A stretch of DNA of 41,469 nucleotides, from assembly GCA_002269645.1 (NCBI GenBank), contig NIVC01001572.1:45052-86520 (forward strand). Reading direction: 5' to 3'. The notes under the pieces are model-generated. The model was given only the letters and a program-made list of their open reading frames with translations. It had not been told where the DNA came from and ran no database searches. The translations under genes and the position numbers were made by a program. This document shows positions 4,081-41,469 of the stretch, piece by piece; positions within the stretch are counted from its first letter, which is position 1; each line of letters begins with the position of its first letter. Source of the DNA: Macrostomum lignano. Its lineage: Eukaryota.

Positions 4081-4083
4081 TAC

Positions 4084-4419
4084 ACGCAGCCAGCATCCTC
4101 CAGCCCCATCCTCTGCCAGGTAGTGGAGTGAGGAGTCGCTATGTCGCAGACCCTGCAGCCCACCAACTGGCACTGAATAGCAAATCAGATGGGGTGCGGG
4201 AGACGCAGTTAATGGGGCGACAGAAGAGGCTGGCAGCCGTTATTAATTATTTATTTAACCGCCTTTGGAACAAACTTCAGTGCGCATTTTCCCTATTGGG
4301 GCTCTTTGAGCAGTTTTTACAGAAAGAAGAAGTGCCAACCTGCCCGCGGATTCTGGGCTTGAGGATGTTGAACGGCAACACATCTACCCTCAGATGCCGG
4401 GTTCGAGGACAGATATAAA
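4084..4419 (-). CDS. Two putative small internal exons (4419-4340 and 4172-~4085) of an unidentified minus-strand gene: YICPRTRHLRVDVLPFNILKPRIRGQ / CQLVGCRVCDIATPHSTTWQRMGLEDAGC
   Basis: Unique island inside the array. Splice sites are CAAG|TT (4420/4419), CAG|GTTGGC (4340/4339) and CTATTCAG|TGC (4173/4172). Phases are compatible and the joined frame is open. No family recognised; the last donor is weak. Confidence 0.35.
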
Positions 4420-4440
4420 CTTGAGTGACAGAGCGAGTGA

Positions 4441-5452: not shown

Positions 5453-5454
5453 GG

Positions 5455-5665
5455 AGGCCCTGAGAAGTGAGCACTGAGACAGCAGTGGAGAAGAGCTGAG
5501 GCCCTGAGAAGTGAGCACTGAGACAGCAGTGGAGAAGAGCTGAGGCCCTGAGAAGTGAGCACTGAGACAGCAGTGGAGAAGAGCTGAGGCCCTGAGAAGT
5601 GAGCACTGAGACAGCGGTGGAGAAGAGCTGAGGCCCTGAGAAGTGAGCACTGAGACAGCAGTGGA
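5455..5665. repeat. 44-bp tandem repeat, ~4.7 copies (GGCCCTGAGAAGTGAGCACTGAGACAGCAGTGGAGAAGAGCTGA)
   Basis: TGAGAAG recurs at 5461, 5505, 5549, 5593 and 5637. Confidence 0.95.
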
Positions 5666-6143
5666 AGCCCGCACAGCTGAGTGGGGCAGTCAGTCGGAAG
5701 GGAGGCACTGCAGGACGGCGAGTCCATCGGAAGCCGGTGGATCAGCAGTGGTGGCCAGAAAATCCGCTTTACTGGCGCCGTTTCGTGCAGTAAAAAAGGG
5801 AGAAAAAATGATTTCAAGACAGATAAGCGGCCGGGGGTGGACAGAATGCCACAGCTGAGAGACCGGGACTCGGTCAGGCTGGAGTTGCTAGGAGAGGAAG
5901 CACCAATCGGGTTGAGTCGCTGGCTGGCTGCTCATGGAATTCCCAAACCCCACGCGCCCCGTCCCTCCGCGGCCCACAGCCTTTATTCCCCACCCACCCA
6001 CAGAGATCCCTCTCACCCAAATCCCCAGGCTGCCCACCCCTCCGACCCGCTGCGCTACAGACAGAAAGACAAAAGCCTCTTGCGGAGCTGCCGGAGCCGG
6101 AGCGCACTTTTGCACCTCGCCAGCCCTGCCACTCTCGCAGCCC

Positions 6144-10331: not shown

Positions 10332-10876
10332 ATCATGTCAAATCATAAAAAAATCAATATGCATGTCGCACGCCAAGGACCACTAGAAGTTACCGCAAAA
10401 GAAATACTCGTAGTTCGAATGTTAAAGTCCATGTTGTACCGGTGGGCCAAGAGTTTGGAAATATTGTCTCATTGATTTTGGAGGATTGACAATTCTTTGA
10501 TAGTGAAATGTAGACTGTAATTGTAAGCTTTGCGTCATCTTAAAAAGAGAACAAAATTTTGAACACACTTGCGAAAAAATTTTCACTTTAAGTGCAACTG
10601 ATCCGGAGTTGTGAGCATGAAAAGTTTAGCTGTAAATGCGAACAAGCGGGCATTAAGCTAGTTCGAGCATGCTAAATGCAGCTTGCTTAATACTTTACTA
10701 GTATGCTCATGCAATGCTACTTGCAAGTAGAACAGAGCAAATCTTGCATTAGTTTCTATTAAATACACCAACTGTGCCGCCCTAAGCCTGTGGCTTTAGT
10801 CAAAATAATTCAGAAATAAAACTCAGATGATAATCATTCTCTGAGTCAGTTAAATTTGGTTCCGAATGCAATCCTG

Positions 10877-13340
10877 TGCTATCTCACTCTGTATCTCGCT
10901 CTGTATCTCACTCTGTATGTCTCTACCTATCTCACTCTCTATCTCACTCTCTATCTTACTCTCTTTCTCACTCTCTTTCTCACTCTCTATCTCACTCTCT
11001 ATCTCACTCTCTATCTTACTCTCTATCTCACTCTCTATCTCACTCTCTATCTCACTCTCTATCTTTCTCTGTATCTCACTCTGTATCTCACTCTCTATCT
11101 CACTCTCTATCTTACTCTCTATCTCACTCTCTTTCTCACTCTCTTTCTCACTCTCTTTCTCACTCTCCATCTCACTCTCTATCTCACTCTCTATCTTACT
11201 CTCTTTCTCACTCTCTATCTCACTCTCTTTCTCACTCTCCACTTCACTAGCTATCTTACTCTGTATCTCACTCTGTATCTCACTCTCTATCTCACTCTCC
11301 ATATCACTCTCTTTCTCACTCTCTTTCTCACTCTCTTTCTCACTCTCTATCTCACTCTCTATCTCACTCTCTATCTCACTCTCTATCTTACTCTCTTTCT
11401 CACTCTCTATCTCACTCTCTATCTCACTCTCTATCTCACTCTCTATCTTACTCTCTATCTCACTCTCTTTCTCACTCTCTTTCTCACTCTCTTTCTCACT
11501 CTCCATCTCACTCTCTATCTCACTCTCTATCTTACTCTCTTTCTCACTCTCTATCTCACTCTCTTTCTCACTCTCCACTTCACTAGCTATCTTACTCTGT
11601 ATCTCACTCTGTATCTCACTCTCTATCTTAATCTCTTTCTCACTCTCTTTCTCACTCTCTATCTCACTCACTATCTTACTCTCTATCTCACTCTCTATCT
11701 TAATCTCTTTCTCACTCTCTTTCTCACTCTCTATCTCACTCACTATCTCACTCTCTATCTCACTCTCTATCTCACTCTCTATCTTACTCTCTATCTCACT
11801 CTCTTTCTCACTCTCTTTCTCACTCTCTTTCTCACTCTCCATCTCACTCTCTATCTCACTCTCTATCTTACTCTCTTTCTCACTCTCTATCTCACTCTCT
11901 ATCTCACTCTCTATCTCACTCTCTATCTTACTCTCTATCTCACTCTCTATCTCACTCTCTATCTCACTCTCTATCTTAATCTCTTTCTCACTCTCTTTCT
12001 CACTCTCTATCTCACTCTCTATCTTACTCTCTATCTCACTCTCTATCTCACTCTCTATCTCACTCTCTATCTTAATCTCTTTCTCACTCTCTTTCTCACT
12101 CTCTATCTCACTCTCTATCTTACTCTCTATCTCACTCTCTATCTCACTCTCTATCTCACTCTCTATCTCACTCTCTATCTCACTCTCTATCTTACTCTCT
12201 ATCTCACTCTCTTTCTCACTCTCTTTCTCACTCTCTTTCTCACTCTCTATCTCACTCTCTATCTCACTCTCTATCTTACTCTCTTTCTCACTCTCTATCT
12301 CACTCTCTATCTCACTCTCTATCTCACTCTCTATCTTACTCTCTATCTCACTCTCTATCTCACTCTCTATCTCACTCTCTATCTTACTCTCTTTCTCACT
12401 CTCTTTCTCACTCTCTATCTCACTCTCTATCTTACTCTCTATCTCACTCTCTATCTCACTCTCTATCTCACTCTCTATCTTAATCTCTTTCTCACTCTTT
12501 TTCTCACTCTCTATCTCACTCACTATCTTACTCTCTATCTCACTCTCTATCTTAATCTCTTTCTCACTCTCTTTCTCACTTCTATCTCACTCACTATCTT
12601 ACTCTCTATCTCACTCTCTATCTCACTCTCTATCTCACTCTCTATCTTAATCTCTTTCTCACTCTCTATCTCACTCTCTATCTCACTCTCTATCTTACTC
12701 TCTATCTCACTCTCTATCTTAATCTCTTTCTCACTCTCTTTCTCACTCTCTTTCTCACTCTCTTTCTCACTCTCTATCTCACTCTCTATCTCACTCTCTA
12801 TCTTACTCTCTTTCTCACTCTCTATCTCACTCTCTATCTCACTCTCTATCTCACTCTCTATCTCACTCTCTATCTCACTCTCTATCTCACTCTCTATCTC
12901 ACTGTCTATCTTAATCTCTTTCTCACTCTCTTTCTCACTCTCTATCTCACTCTCTATCTTACTCTCTATCTCACTCTCTATCTCACTCTCTATCTTACTC
13001 TCTTTCTCACTCTCTATCTCACTCTCTATCTCACTCTCTATCTCACTCTCTATCTTACTCTCTATCTCACTCTCTATCTCACTCTCTATCTCACTCTCTA
13101 TCTTAATCTCTTTCTCACTCTCTTTCTCACTCTCTATCTCACTCTCCATCTCATTCTCCATCTCACTCTCCATCTCACTCTGTATCTCACTCTCTTTCTC
13201 ACTCTCTTTCTCACTCTCTATCTCACTCTTTTTCTCACTCTCTATATCTCACTCTCCATCTCACTCTCTTTCTCACTCTCTATCTCACTCTCTTTCTCAC
13301 TCTCTTTCTCACTCTCCATATCACTTTATCTCACTCTCTG
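10877..13340. repeat. 12-bp pyrimidine-rich minisatellite (ATCTCACTCTCT)n, ~200 copies
   Basis: Direct reading. The plus strand is almost G-free. An internal 336-bp (28-unit) duplication is marked by ACTTCACTAG at 11241 and 11577. Confidence 0.97.
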
Positions 13341-13519
13341 TCACACGCTATCTCAGTTTATATCTCATTTTCCCACTGGTTCTTCCCTGATCGCCATGAA
13401 CTTCGGCCAGAGCTCAGAACCCGAGCCCTTCATTGAGAGGTCTCGAGAGATGCCGAAGGCGGGCCGGCAGTCACGCAGGCTGTCAACAAAGCCGGGAAAT
13501 CGGCTTGGGGCCGCCCCGC

Positions 13520-17415: not shown

Positions 17416-18377
17416 GTGGCGATATCAAATAACCATGAGAATCAACGAACTCTGACGTCAAATCGAGTAAGTTTTTCACAGATCTGCCAAGCCATGAAAA
17501 TGCAGACTGTTTAAAAGCTCAGCAAGTTTGTGGAGAATCAAAGCGGCCACGGCACGAGAATTCCAAATAAGGAAGCTTGGGGATGCCTCTGGGCGGCATT
17601 CAATAAATTTGCTGCCATGAAATGCCGCACGGGATCTCCATTGAAACCCTGCCGCGGTGATGTCAGCAGATGCCCCCCCGGACACCTCCCGGCCCACGCA
17701 GTCAGTCCTCTCCGGGAAATTTGTCACATTTGCCGGTATTTTCTCGGCGGGGGATTTCGGGAAAAAAACAAATTTAAAGCCTCCATGGGGGATTTCCGAC
17801 TGAAGTTGAGGATCGAGTTTCGCACTCAGTCTGTGGGATCGGATGAGCTCCGCGTGGGCGACTCTCGATGCTGATCCGAGCGCTCAGGTTGCGCCAGGCT
17901 CAAACTTGCAGGAGACCCCGCTGCACTAAAGGCGGCCACCTGTCTGTTTACACAGCCAGTCACAGTGCTTTCTGGGGCTTTTAGTGGGTCCTGAGACCTC
18001 GGCAACTCACTGCTTGTCTGTCCCTCCGTCACGATGGGGTCGCAACTCGGCTTGCCCACTCGTGTGTCAGCTGACAGCAGCTTCCATGCAGCAGCTGCAT
18101 CATCTGGGTCTCTGCCGACCCAAGCCCCATTGTGTGCTCTCACCCCCCCCCCTGCACCCCATTGTGCCACCCTACGCTACTACTGGCTTGTGGCTCAATA
18201 GAGCCCTCCGTCTGGCCCTCAACCTGCCTCGGCCCCTCCACTGAGTCGCCCGCCTCCCCTCCGCCTCCGCTGGCCGAGCTCTCGCGGTCTTTATCAATGT
18301 CAGCGGGCGGGGCGCGTGCCCGGGCCAGCCGCAGATTCCAAGCCCTCACTGACGCCATCCTGTGAAGCATATCTCTG

Positions 18378-21299
18378 ATGCAATCGAAAAATCACCAAGC
18401 AGACGCAGCTAAGCTGACGGCACCGACCAAAGAGATGAGCGAGGAGGAAACTGGCAGCAATGGCGGCGGCGGCGGCAGCAGCAGCAGCAGCAGCAGCGGC
18501 AGCCGCAGCCGCAGCAGCGCCTTCAAGCACATGAAGCTGAAGCTGCACCTCGCAGCCACTGGAGAGGACATGGAGGAGGCAAAGCAGGAGCCCGACGCGA
18601 AAAGCGGAACGGACGACTCCGACAAGGTGCCCACCACCGGCGACGTCAGCGACAACTCCGACGACTCGGAGGTGAGCAACCCGAGCCAGCTGCTCAACCG
18701 GATTCTCAACGAGTTCGGCGTGTCATTCGTGCGCGACAACTCGAGCTGCAAGCTGGCCACCTGCGGCCTGAAGCTCTGCTCCCAGCAGCTGCTGCCGCCG
18801 ATGGACGACAGCGACGACCAGCCGTCGGAGGCGGCTTCGGAAGCGGCTGCAGCGTCAGCGGCTGCCGCGGCCTCAGCGGACGGCGGCAGCGACAACCCGG
18901 ACGGGTCGCTCTACTACACCAAGAAGTTTCATGAGAAATTCGCCAGCGTGAACCGCAAGCGCAAGCTGGAGGCACCGGGACTCCCGCTGAACAACTTCGT
19001 GCGCTTCTACAGCGGCGGGGAGCACGCCGGCGCCATGGAGGAGCTCGGCGACGCCCTGGTCGAGACAATGTCCAGCACCAGCACGCTCAACGATGACACC
19101 GCGAGTCTGAAGGATTCGACTGCGGGCTCCGAGGCGGATGCCTCTTCGATGCCGCTGGCTTCCTCTGCGGGGGCGAAGGCAGCGGCCGCAGCTGCCGCGG
19201 TCGCCTCGGGGGAGCCGTGCGCTGTGTGCGAGGACCGAGCCACCGGCCTGCACTACGGAGTCATGACCTGCGAGGGGTGAGCAGGGTTCGATCTTGAGTG
19301 ATGATGCGTGTTGAGGGTCCCAGAGAGCCGGGACTCCCCACCGCAGAGGGCTCTGTTCCGTAGCAGACAGGTCAGGCAGCTTTCTCAAAGCCGCAACCCC
19401 TCCCCGCAGCTGCAAGGGCTTCTTCAAGCGCACCGTGCAGAACCGCCGAATCTACGAGTGCGGCTTCGGTCAGGGCTGCGACGTGCAGCTGCAGCGCCGG
19501 AACAACTGCCAGTTCTGCCGCTTCAGGAAGTGCCTGGACACCGGCATGGTTGTGGAAGGTACGGAAGAGATAGCTGACGGTGAGACAGCTGACGGTGAGA
19601 TAGCTGACGGTGAGACAGCTGACGGTGAGATAGCTGACGGTGAGACAGCTGACGGTGAGATAGCTGACGGTGAGATAGCTGACGGTGAGACAGCTGACGG
19701 TGAGATAGCTGACGGTGAGACAGCTGACGGTGAGATAGCTGACGGTGAGATAGCTGACGGTGAGATAGCTGACGGTGAGATAGCTGACGGTGAGATAGCT
19801 GACGGTGAGACAGCTGACGGTGAGACAGCTGACGCCCATGAAGGCCAACCTGTAAGGCACAGAGACAGAGACTGTACATGCCTGACGAGGAGAAAGTCAG
19901 AGCTTTGTACACCCTGTGTGAGTTCGAGCCTGCTTGCTCAAGGGTCACCGCCACTCTGAATGGGCCTGACTGATCCTGCATTGATGCACCCGCCGCCTCT
20001 TTCAGCGGTCCGCGAGAACCACATGCCGGGCGGCAGAAACTCGAAGGCTGTCTACGGAAAACTATTTGTAAGTCCATTTGACTGACTCTGACTGGGGTTT
20101 GTCACAGCATGACTGACTCTGACTGGGGTTTGTCACAGCATGACTGACTCTGACTGGGATTTGTCACAGCGTGACTGACTCTGACTGGGATTTGTCACAG
20201 CGTGACTGACTCTGACTGGGATTTGTCACAGCGTGACTGACTCTGACTGGGATTTGTCACAGCGTGACTGACTCTGACTGGGATTTGTCACAGCGTGACT
20301 GACTCTGACTGGGGTTTGTCACAGCGTGACTGACTCTGACTGGGGTTTGTCACAGCATGACTGACTCTGACTGGGATTTGTCACAGCATGACTGACTATG
20401 ACTGGGGTTTGTCACAGCATGACTGACTCTGACTGGGGTTTGTCACAGCATGACTGACTCTGACTGGGGTTTGTCACAGCATGACTGACTCTGACTGGGA
20501 TTTGTCACAGCGTGACTGACTCTGACTGGGATTTGTCACAGCGTGACTGACTCTGACTGGGATTTGTCACAGCAATGACTGACTCAGCTTTGCCGCCTAC
20601 TGCAGACGTCAAGCGCAAAGCAGCCGCGCTCTGAGGCGGGTGGAGACTCGACCAGACAGCAGCAGGCCGGACCTTCGGCGGCAGCCGATGAAGCCGCCGC
20701 GACAACGCAGCAGCCGCAGAGCCAGAAGCCGCAGCAGCAGAAGCCGCCGTCCAGACCGACGGGTCACGCGTCGCGGGGCGGCAAGGCGGGCCGCCAGCAG
20801 CCGTCAGCGGCCGCTTCAAAGAAAGCGGCGGCTGCTGCGGCTGGCTTCTCGTACGGACCGCCGCCGCTGCCGCCGCCGCCGCCACAGCAGCCGCCGCAGC
20901 CGCCGTTCAGCGCTGGGTTGACTCGAGCGCCGCAACCACCGCTGCTGCCACCGCCGAGGGATGGCGCCTTCGGCATGATGGGGCATCTACAGCAGCCGCC
21001 GCGAATGCCGTCAGGCCTGGGCCTGCCCGACCCTGCGTTCTTGGCGGCCGCCACCGCCGGCCACCGCTACTTCCAGACACCGGCGCCCCCGCCGCTGATT
21101 GGCTACTCAGCCGCCTCTGCTTCCATGAGCCCCGGCCCGAGCGGCGCCAGGCTTCAACAGGCGTCGCTGCCGCCTCCGCTGCGCCGACCGCCGCTGCCGC
21201 CGCCACCAGGCGGTGCGGCCTATTATCCTCAAATGCCCGCAGCAGCCTCCGACACAGGCGGCATACCGTACTCCAACTTTGGGCAGCAGTACCAGCAGT

Positions 21300-28245: not shown

Positions 28246-29302
28246 AGAAGCCGCAGACACGCTAAACCTCCGGCTCCATCAGAGTCAGGTAGGCATCCAC
28301 AATCAGAAGCCGCAGACACGCTAAACCTCCGGCTCCATCAGAGTCAGGTAGGCATCCACAATCAGAAGCCGCAGACACGCTAAACCTCCGGCTCCATCAG
28401 AGTCAGGTAGGCATCCACAATCAGAAGCCGCAGACACGCTAAACCTCCGGCTCCATCAGAGTCAGGTAGGCATCCACAATCAGAAGCCGCAGACACGCTA
28501 AACCTCCGGCTCCATCAGAGTCAGGTAGGCATCCACAATCAGAAGCCGCAGACACGCTAAACCTCCGGCTCCATCAGAGTCAGGTAGGCATCCACAATCA
28601 GAAGCCGCAGACACGCTAAACCTCCGGCTCCATCAGAGTCAGGTAGGCATCCACAATCAGAAGCCGCAGACACGCTAAACCTCCGGCTCCATCAGAGTCA
28701 GGTAGGCATCCACAATCAGAAGCCGCAGACACACTAAACCTCCGGCTCCATCAGAGTCAGGTAGGCATCCACAATCAGAAGCCGCAGACACGCTAAACCT
28801 CCGGCTCCATCAGAGTCAGGTAGGCATCCACAATCAGAAGCCGCAGACACACTAAACCTCCGGCTCCATCAGAGTCAGGTAGGCATCCACAATCAGAAGC
28901 CGCAGACACGCTAAACCTCCGGCTCCATCAGAGTCAGGTAGGCATCCACAATCAGAAGCCGCAGACACGCTAAACCTCCGGCTCCATCAGAGTCAGGTAG
29001 GCATCCACAATCAGAAGCCGCAGACACACTAAACCTCCGGCTCCATCAGAGTCAGGTAGGCATCCACAATCAGAAGCCGCAGACACGCTAAACCTCCGGC
29101 TCCATCAGAGTCAGGTAGGCATCCACAATCAGAAGCCGCAGACACACTAAACCTCCGGCTCCATCAGAGTCAGGTAGGCATCCACAATCAGAAGCCGCAG
29201 ACACGCTAAACCTCCGGCTCCATCAGAGTCAGGTAGGCATCCACAATCAGAAGCCGCAGACACGCTAAACCTCCGGCTCCATCAGAGTCAGGTAGGCATC
29301 CA
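28246..29302. repeat. 59-bp tandem repeat x~18, overlapping the stop codon and 3' UTR of the F-box gene
   Basis: Unit AGAAGCCGCAGACACGCTAAACCTCCGGCTCCATCAGAGTCAGGTAGGCATCCACAATC, period 59. Confidence 0.97.
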
Positions 29303-32151
29303 GAATCAGCTCTTTCGCATCGCTGCCCGAGGCCACGAGGACGGGCTGCTCGTAGGCAGACTGGAAAGCTGCAACTGCGGCCTCAGTCAGGTCGTCGCAG
29401 CCGGCAATGACCAGCTGCTGCAGCCACGGGCAGCCATTCCGGATACTGGCCAGGGCAGCGGGGGTCAGCTGGGTGCAGCCAGACAGCCACAGCCGCCGCA
29501 GGCCCCTGGCAACCGGACTGGCGCACAGGTCAGCAATTGCCTCATCGGTGAGGCTGGGCTCGGATTTGTAAGGCTCGCGGTCAGCCTCAGGGTAGAGCAG
29601 CACCCTGAGCTCGAGCAGGTCCGCTGAGCAGTTTTGAACGGTTCGCAGGTTCGCCCAGGCCCGGCCGGTGAGGCGCCGGCAGTCGAGGAGGCGGAGGCAG
29701 CGCAGGCGGGGCAGCTGGACGAGCAGAGCCGGTAGGCGGTCGTCGTGGCACACGTCCAGGGTGAGGTGGGTCAGGCCTGCGGAGGGCGGAGTGCCGCACG
29801 ACTCTCAAACTGCTGCATGAGTTTAAGGGTTTCTAAGGTTAAAGGTTAAAGGTTTCTAAGAAACCTCTTTTATCCGGCCCTCGCTCGGATCCATTGAAAC
29901 TTCACAATAGCAATCCGACCAGCTAAAGGTTGGTCATTGGTGTCAGTTCCCTCTTTTCTTTCTTGTCTTCTCTCTCCCTCTTTCTCTCTCCTCTCCTCTC
30001 CTCTCCTTTCCTCTCTCCCCTCTCCACCTCTTCCCTCCCTTATCCTCTCTTCGCTCTTCTCTCCCGTCTTCTCTCCTCTTATCTTACATTTTTTCTCATC
30101 CCATATTTCGCCTCTTCTCTTATCACTCATATTCTATTCCTTCTCCTTTACCTTAAGGATTGAAGAAATCATTGTGGGGGGGGGGCAGGATTCTCCGCAG
30201 CTCAAACAGTCCACACAATTGTTTCTAAGAAACCAAGTTTCCCGTCCTTCTGCACCAGTAGTCCTTGGCACAAACAGGCCAGACAGCCGCCGCTCACCCT
30301 GGCAGGCCCGCAGGCCCTCGGACTGCCCCAGGCCAGCGAAGTCCTCCAGCTCCAGCAGCGGGCAGATGCGCAGGCACAGCTGCCGGAGACCCGCCGGCAG
30401 CGGCGCGGCCAAGTCCGCATCGGCCAGGCGGCAGCGCGTGAACCGGACGATCCGCAGCTCCTCCAGACGGGCGGGCAGGCGGTCAACCAGCAGCCGGTAG
30501 GCCGCACCATCCAGGACGCGGCATTCGCCGATGCAGAGGCTGCGCAGCCGCGGGCAGGCAGCCGCCAGGCGGCCGAATCTGTCGGCAGTCAGCTGGGTGC
30601 AGAAGTCCAGCCGGAGGCCGCGAATGCCGCCGCCGTGGAGGGGGTGGATCAGCAGCTCCGCCATCGAGTTGTTGATATTTGAGTGGGGCAGAGCCAGCTC
30701 CGCCAGGCGGGACAGGCGGGACAGCAGCTGCCGGAATTCTGCGAATGCGACAGACAGACTGACTGGCTGACTGACTGACTGACCGTCTGGCTGACTGACT
30801 GACTGACTGGCTGACTGACTGACTGACTGACTGACTGACTGACTGTCTGACTGACTGACTGACTGACTGACTGGCTGACTGACTGGCTGACTGACTGACT
30901 GACTGACTGACTGACTGTCTGACTGACTGACTGACTGACTGACTGACTGACTGACTGACTGACTGACTGACTGACTGACTGACTGACTGACTGACTGACT
31001 GACTGACTGACTGACTGACTGACTGACTGACTGACTGACTGGCTGACTGACTGACTGACTGACTGACTGGCTGACTGACTGACTGACTGACTGACTGACT
31101 GACTGACTGACTGTCTGACTGACTGGCTGACTGACTGACTGACTGACTGGCTGACTGACTGACTGACTGACTGGCTGACTGACTGACTGACTGACTGGCT
31201 GGCTGACTGATTGACTGACTGACTGACTGACTGACTGACTGACTGACTGACTGGCTGACTGACTGACTGACTGACTGGCTGACTGACTGACTGACTGACT
31301 GACTGACTGACTGACTGACTGGCTGACTGACTGACTGACTGACTGACTGACTGGCTGGCTGACTGATTGACTGACTGACTGACTGACTGACTGACTGACT
31401 GACTGACTGACTGACTGACTGGCTGACTGACTGACTGACTGACTGGCTGACTGACTGACTGACTGACTGACTGGCTGACTGACGGTCGCTTACCAAGCAG
31501 GAAGATGGGGCTCAGAGTCACACTGCTTAGACTTGGGCACTCCGGCAGAACAGAGACAACCTGCCGCACCAGCCGATGGCTCACCTCCAGGTGCAGCGAA
31601 GTCAGCCGGCCGATGATGCCCGCCAGCAGCGACACGAGGTTCGCGTTCTCGGTTGAAAAGTTCGAATACTCGCGGAAGTCCAGCTCGGCCAGGCTCGGAC
31701 AGCCGGCCAGCAGCTGCTTGGCCGGGTCCTCGGTAAACAGCCAGCCGGAGTAGTGCAGCCGCAGACTGCGCAGGCGGGGGCAGCAGCGGCCCAGAACGGA
31801 CAGCGGGTTCGGCCCAGGCCGCCGGTCCCTGTCCGCGTGGTCCGCTTCGTTCTGCGGCTTCTCCAAGGTGAATTTCTGCAGGTTCTTCGACTTGCTCAGC
31901 AGTGGCGCCAGCTCCAGAGCGATCAGCCGGTCGGCGCGGAGCTCCAGCAGCGAGGCGGACAGCCAGGCGGTCAGGCGGGCGATCAGGTTTGGATTGACCG
32001 ACGGGTTGGCGCGGATTCGAATTCGGCGCCACAGCCACGGCTGGGCAACGATTTGCCGCCAGCGCCTGCTCAGCTGAGCGCACCGGCCGAGGCTGGTCTG
32101 GTCCAGCTCGGACAGGATCTGCGTGAGCAGCTCGACAGGCAGCTGCTCCAT
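29265..32151 (-). CDS. F-box/leucine-rich-repeat (FBXL-type) protein: complement(join(29265-29776, 30298-30738, 31494-32151))
   Basis: F-box MEQLPVELLTQILSELDQTSLGRCAQLSRRWRQIV, followed by AMN1-type LRRs (LRSLCIGECRVL, LRRLWLSGCTQLT, LQQLVIAGCDDLT). Both introns are phase 1 with GTAAGC or GTGAGC donors and CGCAG acceptors. Confidence 0.9.
29950..30160. repeat. CT-rich low-complexity tract in F-box gene intron 2
   Basis: Near-pure pyrimidine plus strand. Confidence 0.85.
30753..31483. repeat. (GACT)n / (CAGT)n microsatellite filling F-box gene intron 1
   Basis: Direct reading, with GGCT, GTCT and GATT variants. Confidence 0.98.
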
Positions 32152-32316
32152 CTGCTCCGATGCTTGACAGAAAACCCGGCCAATTAGCTGCTTAAACATG
32201 TCTGCATGCACTTTGGTGCTTGTCTATGGTACCCAAGAAATCTAATTTTTTACTTCCGATTTACTCGGCCGCGTGGCAACATTGAGTGACTAAGTTCTCA
32301 GTCTTGCTTTGAAATA

Positions 32317-32777
32317 TTCAGTGACATTTGCTTCTGCTTCAGTGACATTTGCTTATCATTCAGTGACATTTGCTTCTGCTTCAGTGACATTTTCAACTGC
32401 TGGCATCAATGAGCAGATACAACAATTTCAACTGCTCATATCAATGAGCAGATACAACAGTTTCAACTGCTCACATCAATGAGCAGATACAACAGTTTCA
32501 ACTGCTCATATCAATGAGCAGATACAACAGTTTCAACTGCTCACATCAATGAGTAGATACAACAGTTTCAACTGCTCACATCAATGAGCAGATACAACAG
32601 TTTCAACTGCTCATATCAATGAGCAGATACAACACTTTCAACTGCTCACATCAATGAGTAGATACAACAGTTTCAACTGCTCACATCAATGAGCAGATAC
32701 AACAGTTTCAACTGCTCACATCAATGAGCAGATACAACAGTTTCAACTGCTCACATCAATGAGCAGATACAACAATT
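32317..32777. repeat. Two adjacent arrays: 21-bp x~3.6 (32317-32392) and 35-bp x~11 (32393-32777, TCAACTGCTCACATCAATGAGCAGATACAACAGTT)
   Basis: Period 35 (32463, 32498, ...). Confidence 0.93.
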
Positions 32778-33357
32778 TTAAGCAAATTGAACAAAAGCTA
32801 TAAAAATGCAATAAAATGTCTCGGATACAAAGCAAACTGCAGGCAGGAACCACAACTCATGTCCTGATCTGGATAGAGAAAAGCAGCTCAACCCTATAAT
32901 AATAAGATTTTGATTACAACTGAATCAGTAGATAACATGCCTACTTTTCAGTCCTACCTCTAGTTAGGCATAGCATGAGCCAATAAAAAGTATTCTCATT
33001 ATTGTTAAATGTAAGTTTCGTTTTTAGCAACAAAAGCTTTTTATGTGCAGCGCCAGCCATTTTAGGAATTAAGAATTGTTATGTCTTCTTTTACACCGAA
33101 GAAAGACGGAAGATAGTGCTTGAGCGTTTGCGAGCTTATGCCACTCGAGAGCATAGCCGTTTCAGAAACTTAATATATTTCTTTGGGTCGCGAGCCGTCT
33201 CAAGCATTTAATACTGTACCGAGTATCTAGAGTTTCAACCCTAGACACTTTAGAAGCAGAAAGCAAACGAAGCCGAAGTCTATAAGAAGTCAGAAGTCAC
33301 GTCACAACATCTGTGACAACATCTGTCACAACATCTATTTAGATACTTTCAATATAG

Positions 33358-34058
33358 TGTTGGGCTGCGCCCTTCCAGTGTGTATGTACTCGTACTTTTG
33401 TTTTCAGTTTTCATGCCACCCCGCCCCGTCCCCCGTCTCGCGCCCGGGCCAGGGTTTGTGAGAGGCGTAAGTCTCAACCCTGGCCTAGCCCTTTGCACCC
33501 AGCCCCCGGCCCAATCTCTGTCCAATCTGGGTGCCCCCCCCCTCCCTCGTTGCCCGCCTCACCCTGGGGCTGCTCGTATTGGCTGGCTGGCTGATAAGCC
33601 GGCTGGGCCCCAGGGTTTGGCTCGCCGTCTCCATTCTGCCCCACCCCTCCCCCTTTTTTGTGTATTATTTAAATGCTAGCCCTGAGCGGGCTGCGCTCCA
33701 CGTTTGCTCTCTATTGGTGTCCGCTTCGTTCTTACTGTTTTTGCGTTCATCGGCGTACCTCTGCCTTCGCGTGCCAATAACTGCTTCGGGCCAACAAACG
33801 CTTCGTGATTAACTCGATATATCAAGAGGAGGTGAGCTCGAGCTTTCGTTCTTCTGGGTTGCCGCGTGGGGCCGGGATCTGCAGGGACCTGGGAACGGTG
33901 AACTCTCGCCGATCCCAGGGTGTTCGGTCAGGCGAACTCTCGCCGAACCGAGCGAGACAGGGTAGGAATAGCCGGGGTGAGGGCTGGGACAGGGGTGTCT
34001 CAGGCGGGGAGGGCCCGAACCTTGACCCGTCCAGCGGCCATTAGGCCGAGACACAACA
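33358..34058 (+). repeat. 5' LTR, 701 bp (TGTTGGG...ACAACA)
   Basis: TG...CA ends. The first ~187 bp match 41283-41469. Followed by the PBS after 2 nt. TATA-like TATTTAAA near 33666. Confidence 0.95.
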
Positions 34059-34060
34059 AG

Positions 34061-34078
34061 TGGTGCCGTGACCAGGAT
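34061..34078 (+). other. Primer-binding site TGGTGCCGTGACCAGGAT, probably tRNA-His
   Basis: The reverse complement ...GTCACGGCACCA matches the 3' end of eukaryotic tRNA-His plus CCA. Confidence 0.8.
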
Positions 34079-34182
34079 CAGCGGTCCTCTCCCCTGCTGT
34101 CCTGCCGTGTGTTTAGGGTTGTGTGTGTTGCCTAGTTTATTTGTGTGTTGTTTGCTTCGGTTGTCTCTGTGTTTTTGTAGCC

Positions 34183-35162
34183 ATGGCCAATTTAGACGAT
34201 CTGATTGACGCCCTGACGGCGCGTCTGCAAAACGAACTTAATGTGGCACAGCGGGTGCCGAGGCCAAATAAGTACGTGCCCACACAGGACTTTGCCCTTT
34301 GGATGCAACAATTCACAGGGTATTGTGAGGCGGCTCATATTCTAGGGGATCAGCGCAAGCAGGCGCTGCTCAGTCTGCTTGACTTTAATACTGCTTTTAA
34401 GGCTGTTGCGAATCTTGAGTTGGCCGATGATTTGCCGTATGATGAGTTTGTTGAGCAGCTAGAAGCTAGGTTTGATGAGAATAGGACTGCTCAAGATTAC
34501 AAGACCGAGTTCCAGAGTAGGAATCAGAAAGATGGCGAGCCCATTGAAGAATATGCAGACGTGCTCAAGGAGCTTATGAGAAAATCGTACCCAATGCTGC
34601 CAGCGGCCCAGCGAGAAGAGTTGGTGAAAGACAGGTTTTTGAAGGGGATTCGGGTGCCAGCCCGGGTGCTGGAGAGCGTGCTGCTGCAAGCGCCAGAGAC
34701 GCTCCAGGACGCTATTAGGCGGGTGCGTCAAGTGAGGGCATCGTTGGCTCTGATGGAGCCTGAGGGTAAGCGAGCTGTGCACATGGTGGGGGTCAGGCCG
34801 CAGCGGCTGGCAACAGCCAGGAGTCCAGGGCAGCCGCCGAGATAGCAGCTCTGAAAGCGGAAGTGGCTCAGCTAAAAGCAAGTGCTGCAGCGCCCACTGC
34901 GCCGATGGCGACAGCAAGGTCTGAGCAGCCAAAAGTGAGCTTGCAGCATCGAGCCCCTGAGCAGAGTCAGCAGCAGAGGCAGTGTGGTCGGTGCCTGCAG
35001 ACAGGGCATACTACGGCTCGGTGCCGTAATGCAGTGGTCTGCCGGGAGTGTGGCCAGTCAGGGCACATGCGCAACCGCTGCGATCGTCGGTGGGACCAGT
35101 CGGGTTCGGGAAACGGATTGGGGGCTCGGCCGGGGCACCCGTCCGGGCCCCAGCGTCAGTGA
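34183..35162 (+). CDS. gag: Gag with two CCHC zinc knuckles; 1-nt frameshift in the G5 run at 34788-34792
   Basis: MANLDDLIDAL...capsid-like region (RNQKDGEPIEEYADVLKELMRKSYP...LVKDRFLKGI). Adding one G joins it to GQAAAAGNSQ...AEIAALKAEVAQLK and CGRCLQTGHTTARC / CRECGQSGHMRNRC. Confidence 0.9.
35108..35160 (+). promoter_or_regulatory. Programmed -1 ribosomal frameshift signal: G GGA AAC heptamer plus downstream GC-rich stem
   Basis: The heptamer is in X XXY YYZ register in the gag frame, and the -1 frame is the pol ORF (GKRIGGSAG...). TGGGGGCTCGG can pair with CCGGGCCCCA about 4-5 nt downstream. Confidence 0.8.
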
Positions 35163-38100
35163 ATCCGGGTGCATCGGGGGCCGCGGCCTTGTCCCAGAGT
35201 GTGCTGAGTCGGCAGGGACTGGGCTATGTGGATGCACAGTTTAGGTTTGGGCCCCCGATTGCATGTCTGCTTGACAGCGGGGCCACCGTGTCGTTGTTAA
35301 GCAACCGTTTCCTGAAGTCTAAAAAAGCCGACATTGACTTATTGCCGAATTTGCCGAATTTTTCCGTTTTCGCTGCCAATGGGGAACCGATTGCTGTACA
35401 TGGAATGGTGACGATGAAGTTTTCTGTTGGGGACACCGAGTTTTTGCACGAGTTCGCTGTGGTCGAGGAACTGGCTGTGGCATGTATTCTGGGCACTGAC
35501 TTTTTCGTGAGACACGGGATGGCGATTGACTTTGCTAGGAATTGCTTGCAGACTGCATCCTGTGTGTATCCGTTTCGCTTATCAGCAGATAAGCCGCGTC
35601 TTTGCCGTCTGGTGCTGAGTCAGCCTGAGCAGTTCAATGCAGGTCAAGAGAAGGTGGTGCACGTCAGGTTGCAGAGAAGGGTTCCCTCTGGGGTTCAGTT
35701 CCTAGGCATTGTGGAGTCTGAGAGGAGAGTGAGTAACGAGCAGATGGTGGCCAGATCGGTACAGATGCCTGACGGGGACGGTCGCTTGGCTGTCAGGGTG
35801 TTGAACACGTCAGGATGCAGTCTGTCATTAAGGAAGGGAAGCCGAATTGGTTGGTTCTCCCCAGTGGCGGCCCAGCAGCCAGCTGGGTGGCAGGTGAACT
35901 CGGTGGAGAGTGTCCGAGACGACTGGAACCCCCTCAGCGATGTCAAGGAGTGGGGAGGATGTGGCCTGACGGGCGATGAGAAGCACGAGTTTGAGCGCCT
36001 GATGGCTCGGAATCGTGATGTCTTTGCCAGGGATAGCTCGGAGTTGGGACAGTCACACTTGATGGCGCATGAGATTGACACCGGCAACGCCAAGCCAGTA
36101 AGTCAGCCGCGCGTAGGATTCCACCGCGCTGGAAGGAGGAAATTGATAAGCAGGTTGATGAGTTGTTGCAGCAGGATCGCATCTATCCCTGCTACTCTCC
36201 GTGGGCGAGCCCGATCGTGCCGGTTAAAAAGGCCGACGGTAGCTTGAGGTTGTGTCTAGACTATCGGCGCCTTAACGAGGTCACAGTGCCAGATCCTTAC
36301 CCACCGCCGCGGATGGACGAGACGCTTGATGCGCTAGGAGGGAACTGTGTTTTCTCGACGATGGATCTGGCCTCCGGCTATCATCAGTGCCCGATTGAGC
36401 CGAAGGACCAGTTGAAAACGGCGTTCGTGGTACCCAACAGGGGTCAGTTCGCCTGGAAGTGCATGAGTTTTGGCTTGCGCAATGCTCCCGCTACGTTCGC
36501 CAGGCTAATGTCTATGGCCCTGTCTGAGGTTAACTGGAAGGAGTGCCTGGTGTACTTTGACGATATAGTCGTGTTCGCCAAGTCGGTGGGTCAGCATCTC
36601 GAGCGATTGAAGCATGTTTTCCAGTGCCTGAGGGATGCCAATGTCAAGCTGAAGCCCGCCAAGTGTGTGTTCCTCGCAGAGCGGGTGAAGTTTCTGGGCC
36701 ACATCGTCTCTCAGGAGGGGATCGCAACGGATCCGAGCAAGTGCGAGGAGATCCAGAATTGGCCGAGGCCATGTAGCGCCAAGAAGGTGCAGGCATTCCT
36801 GGGTACGTGCGCCTACTATCAGTCATTTATCCCGCAGTTTTCAGAGATTGCAGCGCCGCTGTATAGGTTAACCGCAGACGGAGTGAAGTTTGAGTGGGGT
36901 AGTGAAGAGGAGAGCTCGTTTTGCAGGCTGAAAGACGCTTTGTGTTCACCGAATGTGATGGCATTCCCGGATTTTTCGCCTGGTGCCGGGGAGTTCATCC
37001 TCGACACGGACGCCAGTTCGCGCGTCGGGCTGGGAGCCGTCCTGTCACAGCGTCAAGCAGATGGCCGTGAGAAGGTGATCGCTTACGGGTCTAGGATGAT
37101 TCATGCGGCGGAGAAAAATTATTGCACCACCAGGTTAGAGTTGCTTGCCGTCGTGCACTTCGTCAAAAAGTATAGGTACTATTTGTTAGGTAGAAAGTTC
37201 ACTGTTCGTTCAGACCACAAAGCTTTGCAGTGGCTAGCCAGTCTGAAGGACGTAGAGGGTCAGTGCGCAAGGTGGCTTGAGTCGCTCCAGAACTTCGACT
37301 TTGAGATCATTCACAGGCCAGGCAAGGAGCACGGCAACGCTGATTCGCTGTCTCGCAAGTACCGAAAACACGCTGGCCATGAGAGCTGCCCTAGCTGCCA
37401 GTTTAGCGAGAATGTGCCAGTAGTGAACGCGGTGTTTGGCAGTGGGCTGTCTTCGAAGGAAGTCCAGCAGGCGCAAGTGGCCGAGAAGAAGCTTGCAGCT
37501 GTCCGCTCCTATGCCCTGGACCCGGGTTCGAACCCCAGTGCGCCTAGAGTGATGTCGTGGGAGGAGCGTGTGCTGTGGGCACAACGGCAGCTGATAAGAG
37601 TAGAGTCTGATCTGTTGTATTTTCAGAGTCCCGGGAGTGGGTGCCAGAAAAAGATCTTGCTGCCGCCGGCTTTGCTGCCGAAAGTGCTCAGTGAGCTTCA
37701 TGATGGGGTTGCAGGAGGGCACCTTGGGGTTAGGAAGACACAAGAGAAAGTGAAGGCGAGATACTGGTGGCCGGGGCTGAGTCGTTCCGTGGAAGAGTAT
37801 TGCCGGAGCTGTGTCCACTGTGCGAAGGCGAAGCCTGGGCGCAGCAACCGGGCGCCTTTGCAGCCAATCTGCTCGGAAGGAGCTTTCCAGAGGATCATGA
37901 GTGACATTGTCGGGCCGTTGCCCAAGTCCAGAGGTGGCAATCGATTCGTGCTGACAATCCAGGATTCTTTTACTAAGTGGCCGGTGGCGGTGCCCTTGTC
38001 CAATCAGCGAGCCCCGACGGTGGCGCGAGCGATTTTTGATCACTGGATTGCGCACTTTGGTTGTCCTGAATTTCTAGTCACCGATAAGGGCACCAATTTT

Positions 38101-39045
38101 GAGTCGGCTTTGATGAAGCAGTTGTGTCGGTTGCTTGCCGTTAAGAAATGCAGAACGTCCTCCTATCACCCGATGGCTGATGGTCAGGCTGAGAGTTTCA
38201 ATAAGACGTTGAAGTCAATGATCAAGTGCAGGATGAGTGAGTCGGTGGGCGAAGGAGACTGGGAGGATCTGATCCACCCGTCTCTCATGGCGTACCGTAG
38301 CAGCGTTCACAGAGGCACGGGGTACACCCCGTACTACATGCTGTACGCCAGGGAGATGCGGCTTCCAGTGGACATCGGAACCTTGCCTGAGTCCATTCCT
38401 GCCAGTGCTCCGGCGTATGTTCAGTCATTAGGTAATAGTCTGGCTGAGGCTCATTCGCAGGTGCGGACCAACCTGCAGCAGTACCAGAGGAAACAGAAAG
38501 TGCTGTACGACTCAAGGGTGCGAGGCCCGGCCATAGAAGTGGGGGATGCCGTCCTAGAATACTCGCCTGCGCTGCAGGCAGGGGAGGCAGCCAAGTTCCA
38601 TTGCAATTGGAAGGGGCCGGCGAAGGTGTTAGAGAAGATATCCGATTTGAATTACCGGGTAAAGCACGCCAATAGGGGAAAGAGAAAAATAGTGCATTAT
38701 AATAATTTGCGAAAAGTACCCGAGCGGCCTGAGCAGTTCAGGTTGATGAATAGGCATACGGCAGTGCAGCGCCGGTCGGCGCATCCGCCTGAGCCGGCAG
38801 GGTGCAGACAGGAGCCCGCGGGGCCGGCGACTAAAGAGCCGGAACTTGAGGAGGAGGAGGAGTTTTACTCGTATGTGGTGCCACCAGTTGCCGTTGGGCC
38901 TCGGCATGGGATAGTAGGGCCGGGAACGCCAGTTGCGCCATGCGCACCGGTGGCTCCAGCGGCGCCAGCCGTGTCTCCGCGCAGACTGCGCGAGCGTCGG
39001 GGTGTGCCCCCAGCGTATTACGGGAATCCGGTATTGTATCGTTAA
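35108..39045 (+). CDS. pol: Pol: aspartic protease, dUTPase-like spacer, RT, RNase H, integrase; 1-nt frameshift at ~36107-36112
   Basis: PR: LLDSGAT. RT: SPWASPIVPV...YFDDI. RH: LDTDAS...ELLAV...SDHKAL...ADSLS. IN: HDGVAGGH...CRSCVHC, SDIVGP, TDKG...35 aa...E, and a C-terminal WKGPAKV. The frames join as PVSQP-x-RRIPPRWKEEIDKQVDELLQQDRI. Confidence 0.95.
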
Positions 39046-39382
39046 TTCGCAGTGGGCTCACAAGGCGGTCGTCATAAATTGATTTTTAATATGCACTTGT
39101 ATTAATGCCTCCACGCTGTTGTCTATGGTAGAAAGCCTAAAATAACCTAAAATGAAAAAAATGATACAACCCCAAAGCACAAAAAAATCATAAAATGGAA
39201 CGCATGGAAAGCACGTAAAAAACATTAAATGTATTAAAATTACAAAGTATGCTAGGCAAGAAGCGTTCTCAATCGTATTGTAAAATAAACATGTCATAGG
39301 ATGGGTCAGGTCAGGGTCACAGTTGCTAGTCCGCAAGGCATAGGTAGTGATTGGGTTTAAATGTCATCATTGCAGGAGGACC

Positions 39383-40108
39383 ATGTCGTCGCCAACGACA
39401 CCGACTGATTTGTATGGCGTGTTAGGCGTGGGTCGGACTGCTAACTCTGCGGAGATTGAGGCAGCGTGTAGTCGTCTGTACTCAAAGCGGCCCCGCGTCT
39501 GTCCTGCCGAGGTAGAGTCTCCGGAGTCTCAGCGAGACGTGATGGCGATGTGCGTTTTATCTGACCCAGTGTTTCGGGAAGTATACGATCGGGTTGGGGA
39601 GGCAGCGTGTCAAGGGGTGTTAAAGTACGCCTACTTTTTCAATCCTCCCCCTGACGTTGAGTTGCCCGAGCAGGTCAGGTTAGCTTTGGCTAGTCTTAAG
39701 GGAAGCGCCGCAGGGGAAGCTCCAGTTCACGCGGAGATCCCAGCCGAGTTATTGGCTCCGGCTGCGCTTGCTGAGTGTAGGCGGCTGAGGGGTGCGCTGC
39801 TGGCGCGGTTGAGGGCTGGGGATAGTGAAGGAGCTTGCCTGGTGGTTCAGGAGGTGGCGAGGTTTCTTGATGGGGCTGGTGTGAGTGTGCCTGAGCAGTT
39901 GTCTAGATTCTTAGCAGTGTCTGTGTCGTTTCTGTGCAATCAGTATGGGCGGAAGAGAGGTTCTGGTGGTGGCTCCGGGAGGTGTCGGAGGGTCCCGCCT
40001 TCGGTGCTGCAGGCGGCGTTTGAGTGCGTGTTGTTGGCTGTGCGGGGTTTTGAGCTGTGTGAGTTGGGGGTCCCTTGTTGGGGAGGCTCCGGGGTCTGTC
40101 TCTCTTAG
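39383..40108 (+). CDS. Retrotransposon cargo ORF with an N-terminal J-domain-like region lacking HPD (probably exon 1, ending at donor 40058/40059)
   Basis: TDLYGVLGVGRTANSAEIEAACSRLYSKRPR...VLSDPVFREVYDRVGE aligns with the DnaJ consensus DYYEILGV...A...EIKKAYRKLA.KYHPD...VLSDPEKR..YD.YGE. Confidence 0.75.
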   Translation: MSSPTTPTDLYGVLGVGRTANSAEIEAACSRLYSKRPRVCPAEVESPESQRDVMAMCVLSDPVFREVYDRVGEAACQGVLKYAYFFNPPPDVELPEQVRLALASLKGSAAGEAPVHAEIPAELLAPAALAECRRLRGALLARLRAGDSEGACLVVQEVARFLDGAGVSVPEQLSRFLAVSVSFLCNQYGRKRGSGGGSGRCRRVPPSVLQAAFECVLLAVRGFELCELGVPCWGGSGVCLS

Positions 40109-40168
40109 TGGATCCTGGCCTCGCGCGGCGCCCGGAGGAGAGGGAGTGACGGGCCGCACCTTTCGCAG

Positions 40169-41068
40169 ACTCCGCTGACGGCCCAGCGCGACTTGGCGAC
40201 CGAAGAGTTAACGGGTGTCGACCCGAGCAAGTACGACCGGCCGACACGGTCCAGGAGGTCTCCCCCCGTGACGACCCGAATCAGCGCAAGGTCAGCTCGG
40301 CTAAGCGTCTCGTCGATGCAAAGGCATACCTAACGAGGCTGGGCCGGTCGATTCAGCCCGAGGACCTTCGTGGCGTGCGTCGATGTCTAGCGGCTGTAAA
40401 CTCGCCGTACTGCCTGCGTCTAGAATGTCCCGTGGTCCGACCACTGCTGCAAGACCGACGGATCGTGTTCGCCCTGGCCTGAAGGCCAGTGCTGCACCGT
40501 GGTGGCCATCGCTGCGAGACGATGTACGACGATTTCTAGCGGGTAGCTGGCCGCGTGTCGTGGCGGTCGGCGAAGTCGAGCTCAATTGGGACGCTGAGAG
40601 GTCGCAGCGCCAGGACCAGTTAACGGCGGCGATGGAGCAGTTCTTGCTTGCCAAGGAGTTCGGCCTGCCGGTTTTGTTCCGAGTTGAAGGCGGCGAACCT
40701 GCCTGGGCGGTCGCCCTAGATTCCTCCGGCAGCCGGAGTTTCAACGATGAGCGTCATGCTGGCCGAGGACCTGGACTTGCCGGAGCCGTCGAGGCCGCGC
40801 TGGTGAGCAGTGCCACGGGTCTTCTTCGAGGTGTCCGCTCGTGCCGAGGATCCCGCGAGCGGTCCAACGGGCTAAGCGTCTCCCGCGGCAGCGCCTGCTA
40901 GTGACATCGGCCGCACCGTTTGGTGGAGACCCCAAGGACCCGACAGCCATCAAGTTCGTGCCGGAAGCCCTAGCGGACAGTGAATGTGATCGCAGGTACT
41001 GGACTCGACTGTTTGCGACCAACTGTAGTAGATTTTTTGGCGATTGTAGAGTAGAATTGCGTTCTTAA
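40169..41068 (+). CDS. Retrotransposon cargo, TatD-like (metallo-hydrolase TIM barrel) domain with degenerate active site; interrupted by about 4-5 frameshifts in this sequence
   Basis: Collinear TatD-like motifs across frames: RLVDAKAYLTRL (40306), DRRIVFAL(G)LKA (~40455-40490), PRVVAVGEVELNW (40551), QFLLAKEFGLPVLFRV (~40640-40685), PRVFFEVS (~40812), KRLPRQRLLVTSAAPF (~40875-40920), FATNCSRFFG (~41012). Confidence 0.65.
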
Positions 41069-41271
41069 GCCCGTTTTCAATTTTTGCGTACGCAATAGTT
41101 TGTGTCCCGTTTTCATTTTTTCGTTTTGTTTTTTGTAATGCCGGCGATATCCACGCGTCGCGTCAAAGTTTTTCTGTTATTTTTCGGCCGTCTTTTTGAA
41201 TTAACTTTTTTTCAGACTTGCTTGTTCATGCGTTGCTTTTGCTTGACATCCCTTTCTCCTCTTCTTTTCGT

Positions 41272-41282
41272 GGAGGGGGAGA
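41272..41282 (+). other. Polypurine tract GGAGGGGGAGA
   Basis: Immediately precedes the TG start of the 3' LTR. Confidence 0.9.
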
Positions 41283-41469
41283 TGTTGGGCTGCGCCCTTC
41301 CAGTGTGTATGTACTCGTACTTTTGTTTTCAGTTTTCATGCCACCCCGCCCCGTCCCCCGTCTCGCGCCCGGGCCAGGGTTTGTGAGAGGGCGTAAGTCT
41401 CAACCCTGGCCTAGCCCTTTGCACCCAGCCCGGCCCAATCTCTGTCCAATCTGGGTGCCCCCCCCCTCC
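41283..41469 (+). repeat. 3' LTR (first 187 bp; truncated by the window end)
   Basis: Matches 33358 onward except for homopolymer length differences (GG/GGG, C5/C3). Confidence 0.95.

Follow-up and report, generated by a model that had tools for sequence, protein, structure and literature searches.

To our knowledge, fixed extra domains are rare in LTR retrotransposons and usually mark host pressure. Viral J-domain proteins such as the polyomavirus T antigens fuse a J-domain to effector modules and recruit Hsp70. The capture of an additional open reading frame (ORF3) by Gypsy elements has already been described. According to the accessible parts of the two reports, bdelloid rotifer Gypsy ORF3s encode a DEDDy exonuclease or a GDSL esterase (PMC5408684), and an orchid Ty3/Gypsy ORF encodes an AlkB m6A demethylase that is proposed to counter host surveillance (PMC9289625). 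The former source also names Maelstrom and EXD1, in which a dead nuclease fold has been kept for RNA binding and transposon control.

The window examined here, a stretch of 41,469 nt from the flatworm Macrostomum lignano, ends in a Gypsy element whose ORF3 joins a J-domain-like segment, a helical domain and a TatD fold. The T antigens differ from it in coming from DNA viruses, while the window family lacks the HPD motif. The LxCxE motif was absent from the six HPD-bearing J-only ORF3 frames that we read from their start. Like the bdelloid ORF3s, the flatworm frame is a captured nuclease-type gene at the env position with family-specific gain and loss; however, the bdelloid proteins retain their invariant residues, have a DEDD fold and carry no J-domain, and the accessible text on them mentions neither DnaJ nor TatD (PMC5408684). 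The orchid ORF is likewise an extra frame with a nucleic-acid enzyme fold, but it is active in vitro, belongs to a plant lineage and has another fold (PMC9289625). Maelstrom and EXD1 are host genes with a DEDD fold and act against transposons (PMC5408684). With group II TatD proteins (YcfH, YjjV, TATDN2, TATDN3) the element domain shares the TIM-barrel motif order, the b4 GE, b5 LP and b8 RLL motifs and the C-terminal N..RFF, and its sister families retain the D-x-H at b1. It differs from them in the replaced b8 acids and b3, b5 and b6 histidines, in its basic surface and in its fusion behind a J-domain within a retrotransposon.

The first-pass annotation did not recall such cargo from LTR retrotransposons, and our literature search found no description of TatD or J-domain cargo in Gypsy elements either, although the 2020 LTR classification of this species, Repbase and Dfam may mention it. 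The accessible main text of two papers on M. lignano LTR elements (PMC12801592, PMC8775202) mentions neither DnaJ nor TatD. From the sequence evidence given below, we consider the protein to be the product of a selected ORF3 in a young Gypsy family; a spliced mRNA is its likely template, and it is likely a non-cutting, nucleic-acid-binding accessory protein and not a nuclease. We put the probability of this reading at about one half.

A complete Gypsy element at the contig end

The element occupies window positions 33358-41469, its 3' LTR being clipped by the end of the contig. Its LTRs, primer-binding site, polypurine tract, gag and pol domain order identify it as a Ty3/Gypsy LTR retrotransposon:

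33358..34058, forward strand: 5' LTR (TG...CA), pairs with the 3' LTR
34061..34078, forward strand: primer-binding site, complementary to host tRNA-His(GUG); 11 genomic matches versus 0 for the reversed control
34185..35162, forward strand: gag with capsid and zinc knuckles; frame interrupted in the window copy, a single 348-aa frame in L072 and L075
35030..39045, forward strand: pol in Gypsy order (protease-RT-RNase H-integrase); the frame is interrupted once in the window copy
41270..41282, forward strand: polypurine tract, adjoining the 3' LTR
41283..41469, forward strand: 3' LTR, clipped; the window end is the end of contig NIVC01001572.1

Both genomic matches to the primer-binding site that we tested are tRNA-His. 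In L075 and L074, pol is a single frame of 1338-1341 aa. The LTR pair of the window shows no substitutions and two small indels over 189 columns, and a 4-bp target duplication was seen at one locus (L075). Proteins that match at 97-100% identity over the aligned stretches carry the label M. lignano in UniRef.

An F-box/LRR host gene containing a long short-period tandem repeat lies just upstream of the element (29265-32223, reverse strand). Exons of a zinc-finger (C4) gene, probably a nuclear receptor, are found at 18366-19959 on the forward strand. The stretches 1-5900, 10820-13400 and 32317-32851 are strongly skewed and probably repetitive, and include a 35-bp tandem repeat.

LTR elements of M. 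lignano exploit the heat-shock response, according to the accessible part of PMC12801592. We considered the heat-responsive family Mlig-id38 of that paper as a possible identity of our element and rejected it, its LTR being about 337 nt long and differing in sequence by eye. The canonical heat-shock element pattern is absent from window positions 33000-41469.

A third open reading frame of 558 amino acids

The first-pass annotation had proposed a unit at 40290..41068, made of seven peptide blocks in TatD order between pol and the polypurine tract, and had placed the TatD-like domain at the env position. A search of the own genome returned at least 27 matches, 19 of which span the whole ORF3 region. 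The TatD-like blocks are only the C-terminal half of a 558-aa third ORF, so that the proposed boundaries do not hold: the actual unit starts at 39383, and a fused J-domain and helical domain, an older ORF3 common to the whole clade, had been missed in front of it.

39383..41049, forward strand: ORF3 (P0001), 558 aa where the frame is intact; the window copy has 12 one-base indels
39407..39589, forward strand: J-domain-like segment; Pfam DnaJ E 6.8e-5, below cut-off; HPD absent in the window family
39764..40122, forward strand: conserved domain, not assigned to a family and probably helical, containing a basic RKR stretch; common to the J-domain ORF3s of the clade
40309..41046, forward strand: TatD-fold domain without most canonical metal ligands (Pfam, profile, Atlas, PDB, AF2/Foldseek)

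In P0001, aa 9-69 form the J-like segment and about 128-247 the middle domain, which an acidic linker connects to the TatD-like domain (about 310-556). Six of the seven blocks are found literally in the window, distributed over three frames (LVDAKAYL from 40309, VAVGEVELN from 40560, LPVLFRV from 40665, SVMLAE from 40750, LLVTSAAPF from 40895 and ATNCSRFF from 41015). The seventh, ALGLKA, is in no window frame because it spans a one-base gap near 40475, but it is present in unbroken copies.

Among the 19 full-length copies, 10 are unbroken (558 aa; 562 in L019), 8 carry one to three one-base indels and the window copy carries 12. Checking other copies, as the annotation had advised, thus showed that the breaks are not a property of the family. 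Compared with L002, the window copy displays 12 indels but a single substitution, and L072, the element to which L002 belongs, has an identical 20-base 5' flank. L002/L072 is therefore probably the window insertion on another contig. The indels cluster towards the contig end, and contigs of all four sequencing runs (from four studies) contradict the window at all nine of the ORF3 places listed. Given these observations and the intact copies, the frameshifts are most likely assembly errors near the contig end.

In L072 (8451-9901), the 3' LTR of this probable twin is followed immediately by another gag, with no primer site in between, as in a tandem copy. The UniRef gene models P0002 and P0003 skip about 100 codons in the middle of ORF3 (window about 39875-40170), either because the prediction is wrong there or because ORF3 has an alternative splice form.

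The C-terminal domain has a TatD fold

The TatD scaffold that had been read from the peptide blocks is borne out by several searches. The L002 TatD domain alone matches PF01026 with an E-value of 6.8e-6 and 26.1 bits, against a curated cut-off of 27 bits, and sister-family copies reach 31.9-35.3 bits, above the cut-off. A seven-row family profile retrieved 418 proteins, and PF01026 is assigned to all 120 of those listed. The likeness is therefore beyond chance. The ten best Atlas feature matches with an assigned family are all TatD (best 0.93), as are 12 of 12 PDB profile matches, the best being YjjV and YcfH. An AF2 model built from 6 element rows and 107 TatD rows had a pLDDT of 92.5 and a pTM of 0.90, guided by an alignment of 113 sequences that true TatD rows dominate; the top Foldseek matches of this predicted structure are all TatD (TM about 0.8, E 3e-12 to YcfH). 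From a single sequence, AF2 reached a pLDDT of 40, and the structure search then returned generic alpha/beta folds at Z <8 but no TatD match. The corrected ORF nevertheless gives both a TatD match and a TIM-barrel prediction, the lack of which the annotation had named as counter-evidence. A word-index search with the full ORF3 protein gave no match, and no relative turned up in metagenome and viral contigs.

Loss of the canonical active site

We compared the ligand columns that are invariant in 106-107 of 107 TatD proteins with the 6 element rows. The two b1 histidines read K,Y in family A, the window family, and H,F in families B and C. The b3 His is replaced by Lys or Arg in the four rows that cover the column (4/4), and in all six rows the b5 His has become Arg or Gln and the b6 His Glu. 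In the b8 E-T-D motif, Glu is replaced by T/A, Thr by S and Asp by A/V/S/G (Glu and Asp in 6/6 rows). The b4 Glu is retained in 6/6 rows, the following GLD reading ELN, ELD or QLD. The earlier observation that most ligands are replaced is confirmed for the b3, b5 and b6 histidines and the b8 acids. The statement that only the b4 Glu remains is right as to that residue but incomplete: next to E398 (b4), a Glu at the b6 His position (E463) and one in b7 (E485) are invariant across all element rows. The alignment indicates that the canonical two-metal TatD site is gone, while its most important single residue, the b4 Glu, remains.

These three glutamates are what speaks for a rewired active nuclease or hydrolase, in which the b4 Glu and the new b6 and b7 Glu would form a Mg-type acidic site trimming 3' ends, AP sites or element RNA. 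In the accessible part of the TATDN1 study (PMC10085689), the b4 Glu is the only metal ligand whose alanine mutant (E112A) reduces both activities, the single mutants H149A, H174A, E220A and D222A keep exonuclease activity, and class I TatD proteins are active although they lack the b1 HxH. The bdelloid DEDDy and GDSL enzymes of Gypsy ORF3s have kept their invariant residues (PMC5408684, as far as accessible). However, the element domain has lost both b8 acids along with the His ligands, and Lys or Arg occupy two of the pocket positions. In the accessible parts of the relevant papers, E. coli TatD depends on both b8 acids individually, E201A and D203A each leaving little residual activity, as does E91A (PMC4176340). 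TATDN2 likewise depends on its b8 Glu: E705A abolishes activity, and so does E593A (PMC10711561). We therefore regard a rewired enzyme as unlikely.

The preferred reading, a domain that binds without cutting, is consistent with its charge. The pI of the domain is 9.3-9.9 in five rows from the own genome, as opposed to a median of 5.5 and a maximum of 7.8 in 107 bacterial TatD proteins. Eleven K/R positions are common to families A, B and C, and five of these are K/R in at most 15 of the 107 bacterial rows. For the C-terminal half alone the contrast is weak (pI 6.8-11.0 vs 7.1 and 8.1 in host TatD), and P0004, a related fragment discussed below, is an exception, its overall pI being 6.1. His77 of TATDN1 forms a hydrogen bond with phosphate (PMC10085689, accessible part). 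Nucleic-acid binding does not follow from the TatD fold as such, since the isolated nuclease domain of TATDN2 lacks R-loop binding; a dead TATDN2 mutant binds weakly (PMC10711561, accessible part).

The J-domain and the helical middle domain

The DnaJ match (PF00226) in the window family scores 23.3 bits, against a cut-off of 27.8, whereas relatives reach 48-65 bits, with E-values of 7e-13 and 8e-17 in sister copies that have the HPD motif. HPD is missing in the three family A copies compared, is present in L058, L060, L061 and five J-only families, and is replaced by RPD in L062-L065 and in family D.

The helical domain between the J-like segment and the TatD fold could not be assigned to a family. 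In Pfam no family was common to two members, the PDB gave only chance-level matches, mostly to designed helical proteins, and the Atlas gave no usable match. A profile search with this domain matched only the gene model P0003 of the same species.

Relatives and history

The own genome contains relatives with 32-40% identity in the TatD domain. Gypsy pol lies upstream in 10 of 14 such loci (L058-L071), while L058, L059 and L070 have no nearby pol and L071 only an integrase tail. ORF3 is broken or partial at all 14 sister loci, and an unbroken TatD-bearing ORF3 of the sister families was not found among them. In L067-L069, which are young (LTRs 99.6-99.9% identical), only the last 181 TatD-like codons are kept as an open frame.

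Twenty further loci were picked down the list of 138 integrase matches, and none of them (0/20) had a TatD match. In nine of the twenty, from five families, an ORF3 is present that combines an HPD J-domain with the middle domain known from the window family. Nine others, the nearest relatives (71-80% integrase identity), have no ORF3, nor do two more. The J-only ORF3s consist of an HPD J-domain, an acidic linker and the middle domain, without TatD, and occur in L152/L153/L155/L162, L154/L160, L156, L157 and L158. For the L157 family we count about 20 copies that are nearly identical. In L158 (2499-3482, reverse strand), a chromodomain (Pfam E 1.4e-12) is located within ORF3 between the J-domain and the helical domain, and not on the integrase.

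L143-L151 form a young sister group that is nearest by RT and integrase and has up to about 1.3 kb without ORF3 similarity between pol and the polypurine tract. The LTRs of L143, L144, L148 and L150, which lack ORF3, are 98.7-100% identical, and those of L143 and L148 retain a GTAAGT donor-like site. In L159, a close relative of the J-bearing L157 family, pol is followed by a region of short repeats where the J ORF would be expected. Five ORF3-less sister loci and L159 were searched for remnants of ORF3, and none was detected (best E 0.005, inside pol).

We built midpoint-rooted trees from own-genome rows, with RT on 21 and integrase on 20 (L150 omitted) of 40 loci. Both place the TatD families and the ORF3-less group in one clade (100/100), with the J-only families outside, and the ORF3-less group is sister to the window family. 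The simplest reading of these trees would be that an ORF3 with J-domain and helical domain came first, followed by a single TatD gain, a later HPD loss in the window family and an ORF3 loss in the sister group.

Outside the own genome we found only P0004, a 166-aa Logan fragment that is 51% identical, has the same ligand losses and has no closer match in the own genome. The host has TatD genes of two types at L108-L118, several copies each, which we take from their motifs to be TATDN1-like and TATDN3-like. No TATDN2-like host gene was found in two candidate-limited searches. In a 28-row tree, the element TatD is on a long branch. Candidate donors of the domain are a lost TATDN2-type gene and a bacterial gene.

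Selection on ORF3

dN/dS was calculated according to Nei-Gojobori with 500 bootstraps on natural open frames. Between subfamilies of family A, it is 0.28-0.33 for the whole ORF3 (upper bounds 0.50-0.56), 0.32-0.36 for the TatD domain (upper bounds 0.80-0.97) and 0.18-0.43 with wide intervals for the J segment, compared with 0.15-0.16 for pol. Between families B and C, the TatD domain has 0.13, the J segment 0.10 and the middle domain 0.06-0.10, values that are approximate because dS is 1.7 and above. B versus D gives 0.42. Selection seems to be relaxed in the comparison of B with the truncated family L067 (0.64, 0.28-1.5). Judged by its ratios (0.13-0.36), the TatD-like domain is under purifying selection.

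Both domains of the window family lack their active motifs and yet are selected. This would fit a decoy at the protein level, in which the disarmed J and TatD domains would resemble the surfaces of host co-chaperones and TATDN proteins and sequester their partners (the Hsp70 machinery, or silencing or repair factors), without contact to nucleic acid. The change of HPD to RPD in family D points in the same direction, and the capture of nxf2 by TART, as far as its accessible account goes, is a precedent for a transposable element carrying host-gene sequence. The mimicry would, however, be poor, since the domain is distant from the host: an element profile scores host TATDN1-/TATDN3-like exons at 6-12 bits and selected bacterial TatD proteins at 50-69 bits (a biased comparison), in line with the long branch. 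Basic residues also accumulate on the TatD-like domain. A pure protein decoy thus appears improbable, about as much so as the rewired enzyme.

Far less probable still is that the captured gene is slowly decaying while an active element carries it along. The broken or partial sister ORF3s and the lack of ORF3 in the nearest sister group could be taken for decay, as could the distinct changes among near-identical family A copies (6 synonymous, 9 non-synonymous), although 15 changes are too few to judge. However, the dN/dS intervals exclude 1 for the whole ORF3, narrowly for TatD in three pairs of A subfamilies and clearly for B versus C. Across 60% protein divergence, the frame of 558 codons has stayed open and the replaced residues have stayed the same, so that decay is largely refuted. 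The ligand losses themselves are not decay, being common to families that are only about 37-40% identical. Retention instead of random decay, as the annotation had suggested, is thereby upheld; the combination of a dN/dS near 1 with copy-specific stops, which it had named as the sign of simple decay, was not found.

Predicted splicing of ORF3

The env of Drosophila gypsy is expressed from a spliced mRNA, and corresponding sites can be predicted in the window element:

33832..33837, forward strand: predicted splice donor AG/GTGAG, about 227 nt before the end of the 5' LTR
39370..39375, forward strand: predicted splice acceptor TTGCAG before ORF3, present in 20 of 21 family copies

The UniRef gene model P0005 links the LTR donor at 33832 to the acceptor before the ORF3 ATG. 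All six sister LTRs have GTAAG donor candidates at -208 to -265, each preceded by an A, and TTGCAG, found in six sister copies, stands in each of them directly before the J-domain and is followed by TG. Splicing would therefore create the start codon in these copies; in family C, the J frame has no other in-frame ATG. The argument is somewhat weakened by L154/L160, which have the same A before the donor but an ATG of their own. In three of the five J-only families, AG directly precedes the ATG. The donor-acceptor joint was not seen in contigs of three presumed-RNA runs and one presumed-DNA run that cover ORF3, which is uninformative because contigs drop rare forms. None of the runs that contain the stretch is registered as RNA. 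Taken together, these sites suggest that ORF3 is likely made from a spliced, env-like mRNA.

The env position claimed earlier is correct in that ORF3 lies between the end of pol (39045) and the polypurine tract (about 41270), but the sequence is not env-like. An envelope substitute for cell-to-cell spread, suggested by the location after pol and the predicted splicing, is hardly credible, as ORF3 has soluble-type domains, no transmembrane stretch (maximum 19-residue hydropathy 1.49) and no Pfam envelope match.

Possible role of the captured domain

For the preferred reading, a non-cutting accessory protein, the following course can be proposed. The ancestral ORF3, with its HPD J-domain and helical domain, would have recruited Hsp70. 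One subclade would then have gained a captured TatD at the C-terminus of ORF3, in which the b8 Glu and Asp and the His ligands would have been lost and the phosphate-contacting b3 His and the b5 His replaced by Lys or Arg. With these ligands lost and Lys/Arg in two pocket positions, the barrel would hold the backbone or ends of DNA or RNA without cleavage, and would tether ORF3 to element RNA, cDNA or R-loops, or shield them. Since the HPD of its J-domain is lost, the ORF3 of the window family would be a scaffold or decoy and not an Hsp70 activator. As there are young relatives without ORF3, an element does not need the frame in cis to have spread recently; the protein may come from other copies in trans or be needed only under certain conditions.

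A wider and more speculative reading, which we think doubtful, is that a spliced Hsp70 co-chaperone common to this Gypsy clade would serve as a modular counter-defence platform with swapped readers (a chromodomain, or a disarmed TatD that grips nucleic acid). In the window family, ORF3 would then be nothing but a decoy, keeping host TatD or silencing factors away from reverse-transcription or R-loop intermediates.

The cargo described here comprises a J-domain platform, found in at least five TatD-less families and in the TatD-bearing ones, and a TatD fold that has been maintained by selection after the loss of its canonical catalytic set. With ORF3, functions of the TatD fold other than cutting, and the use of Hsp70 in retrotransposon life cycles, could be examined in a natural case, in M. 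lignano, a flatworm tractable by transgenesis.
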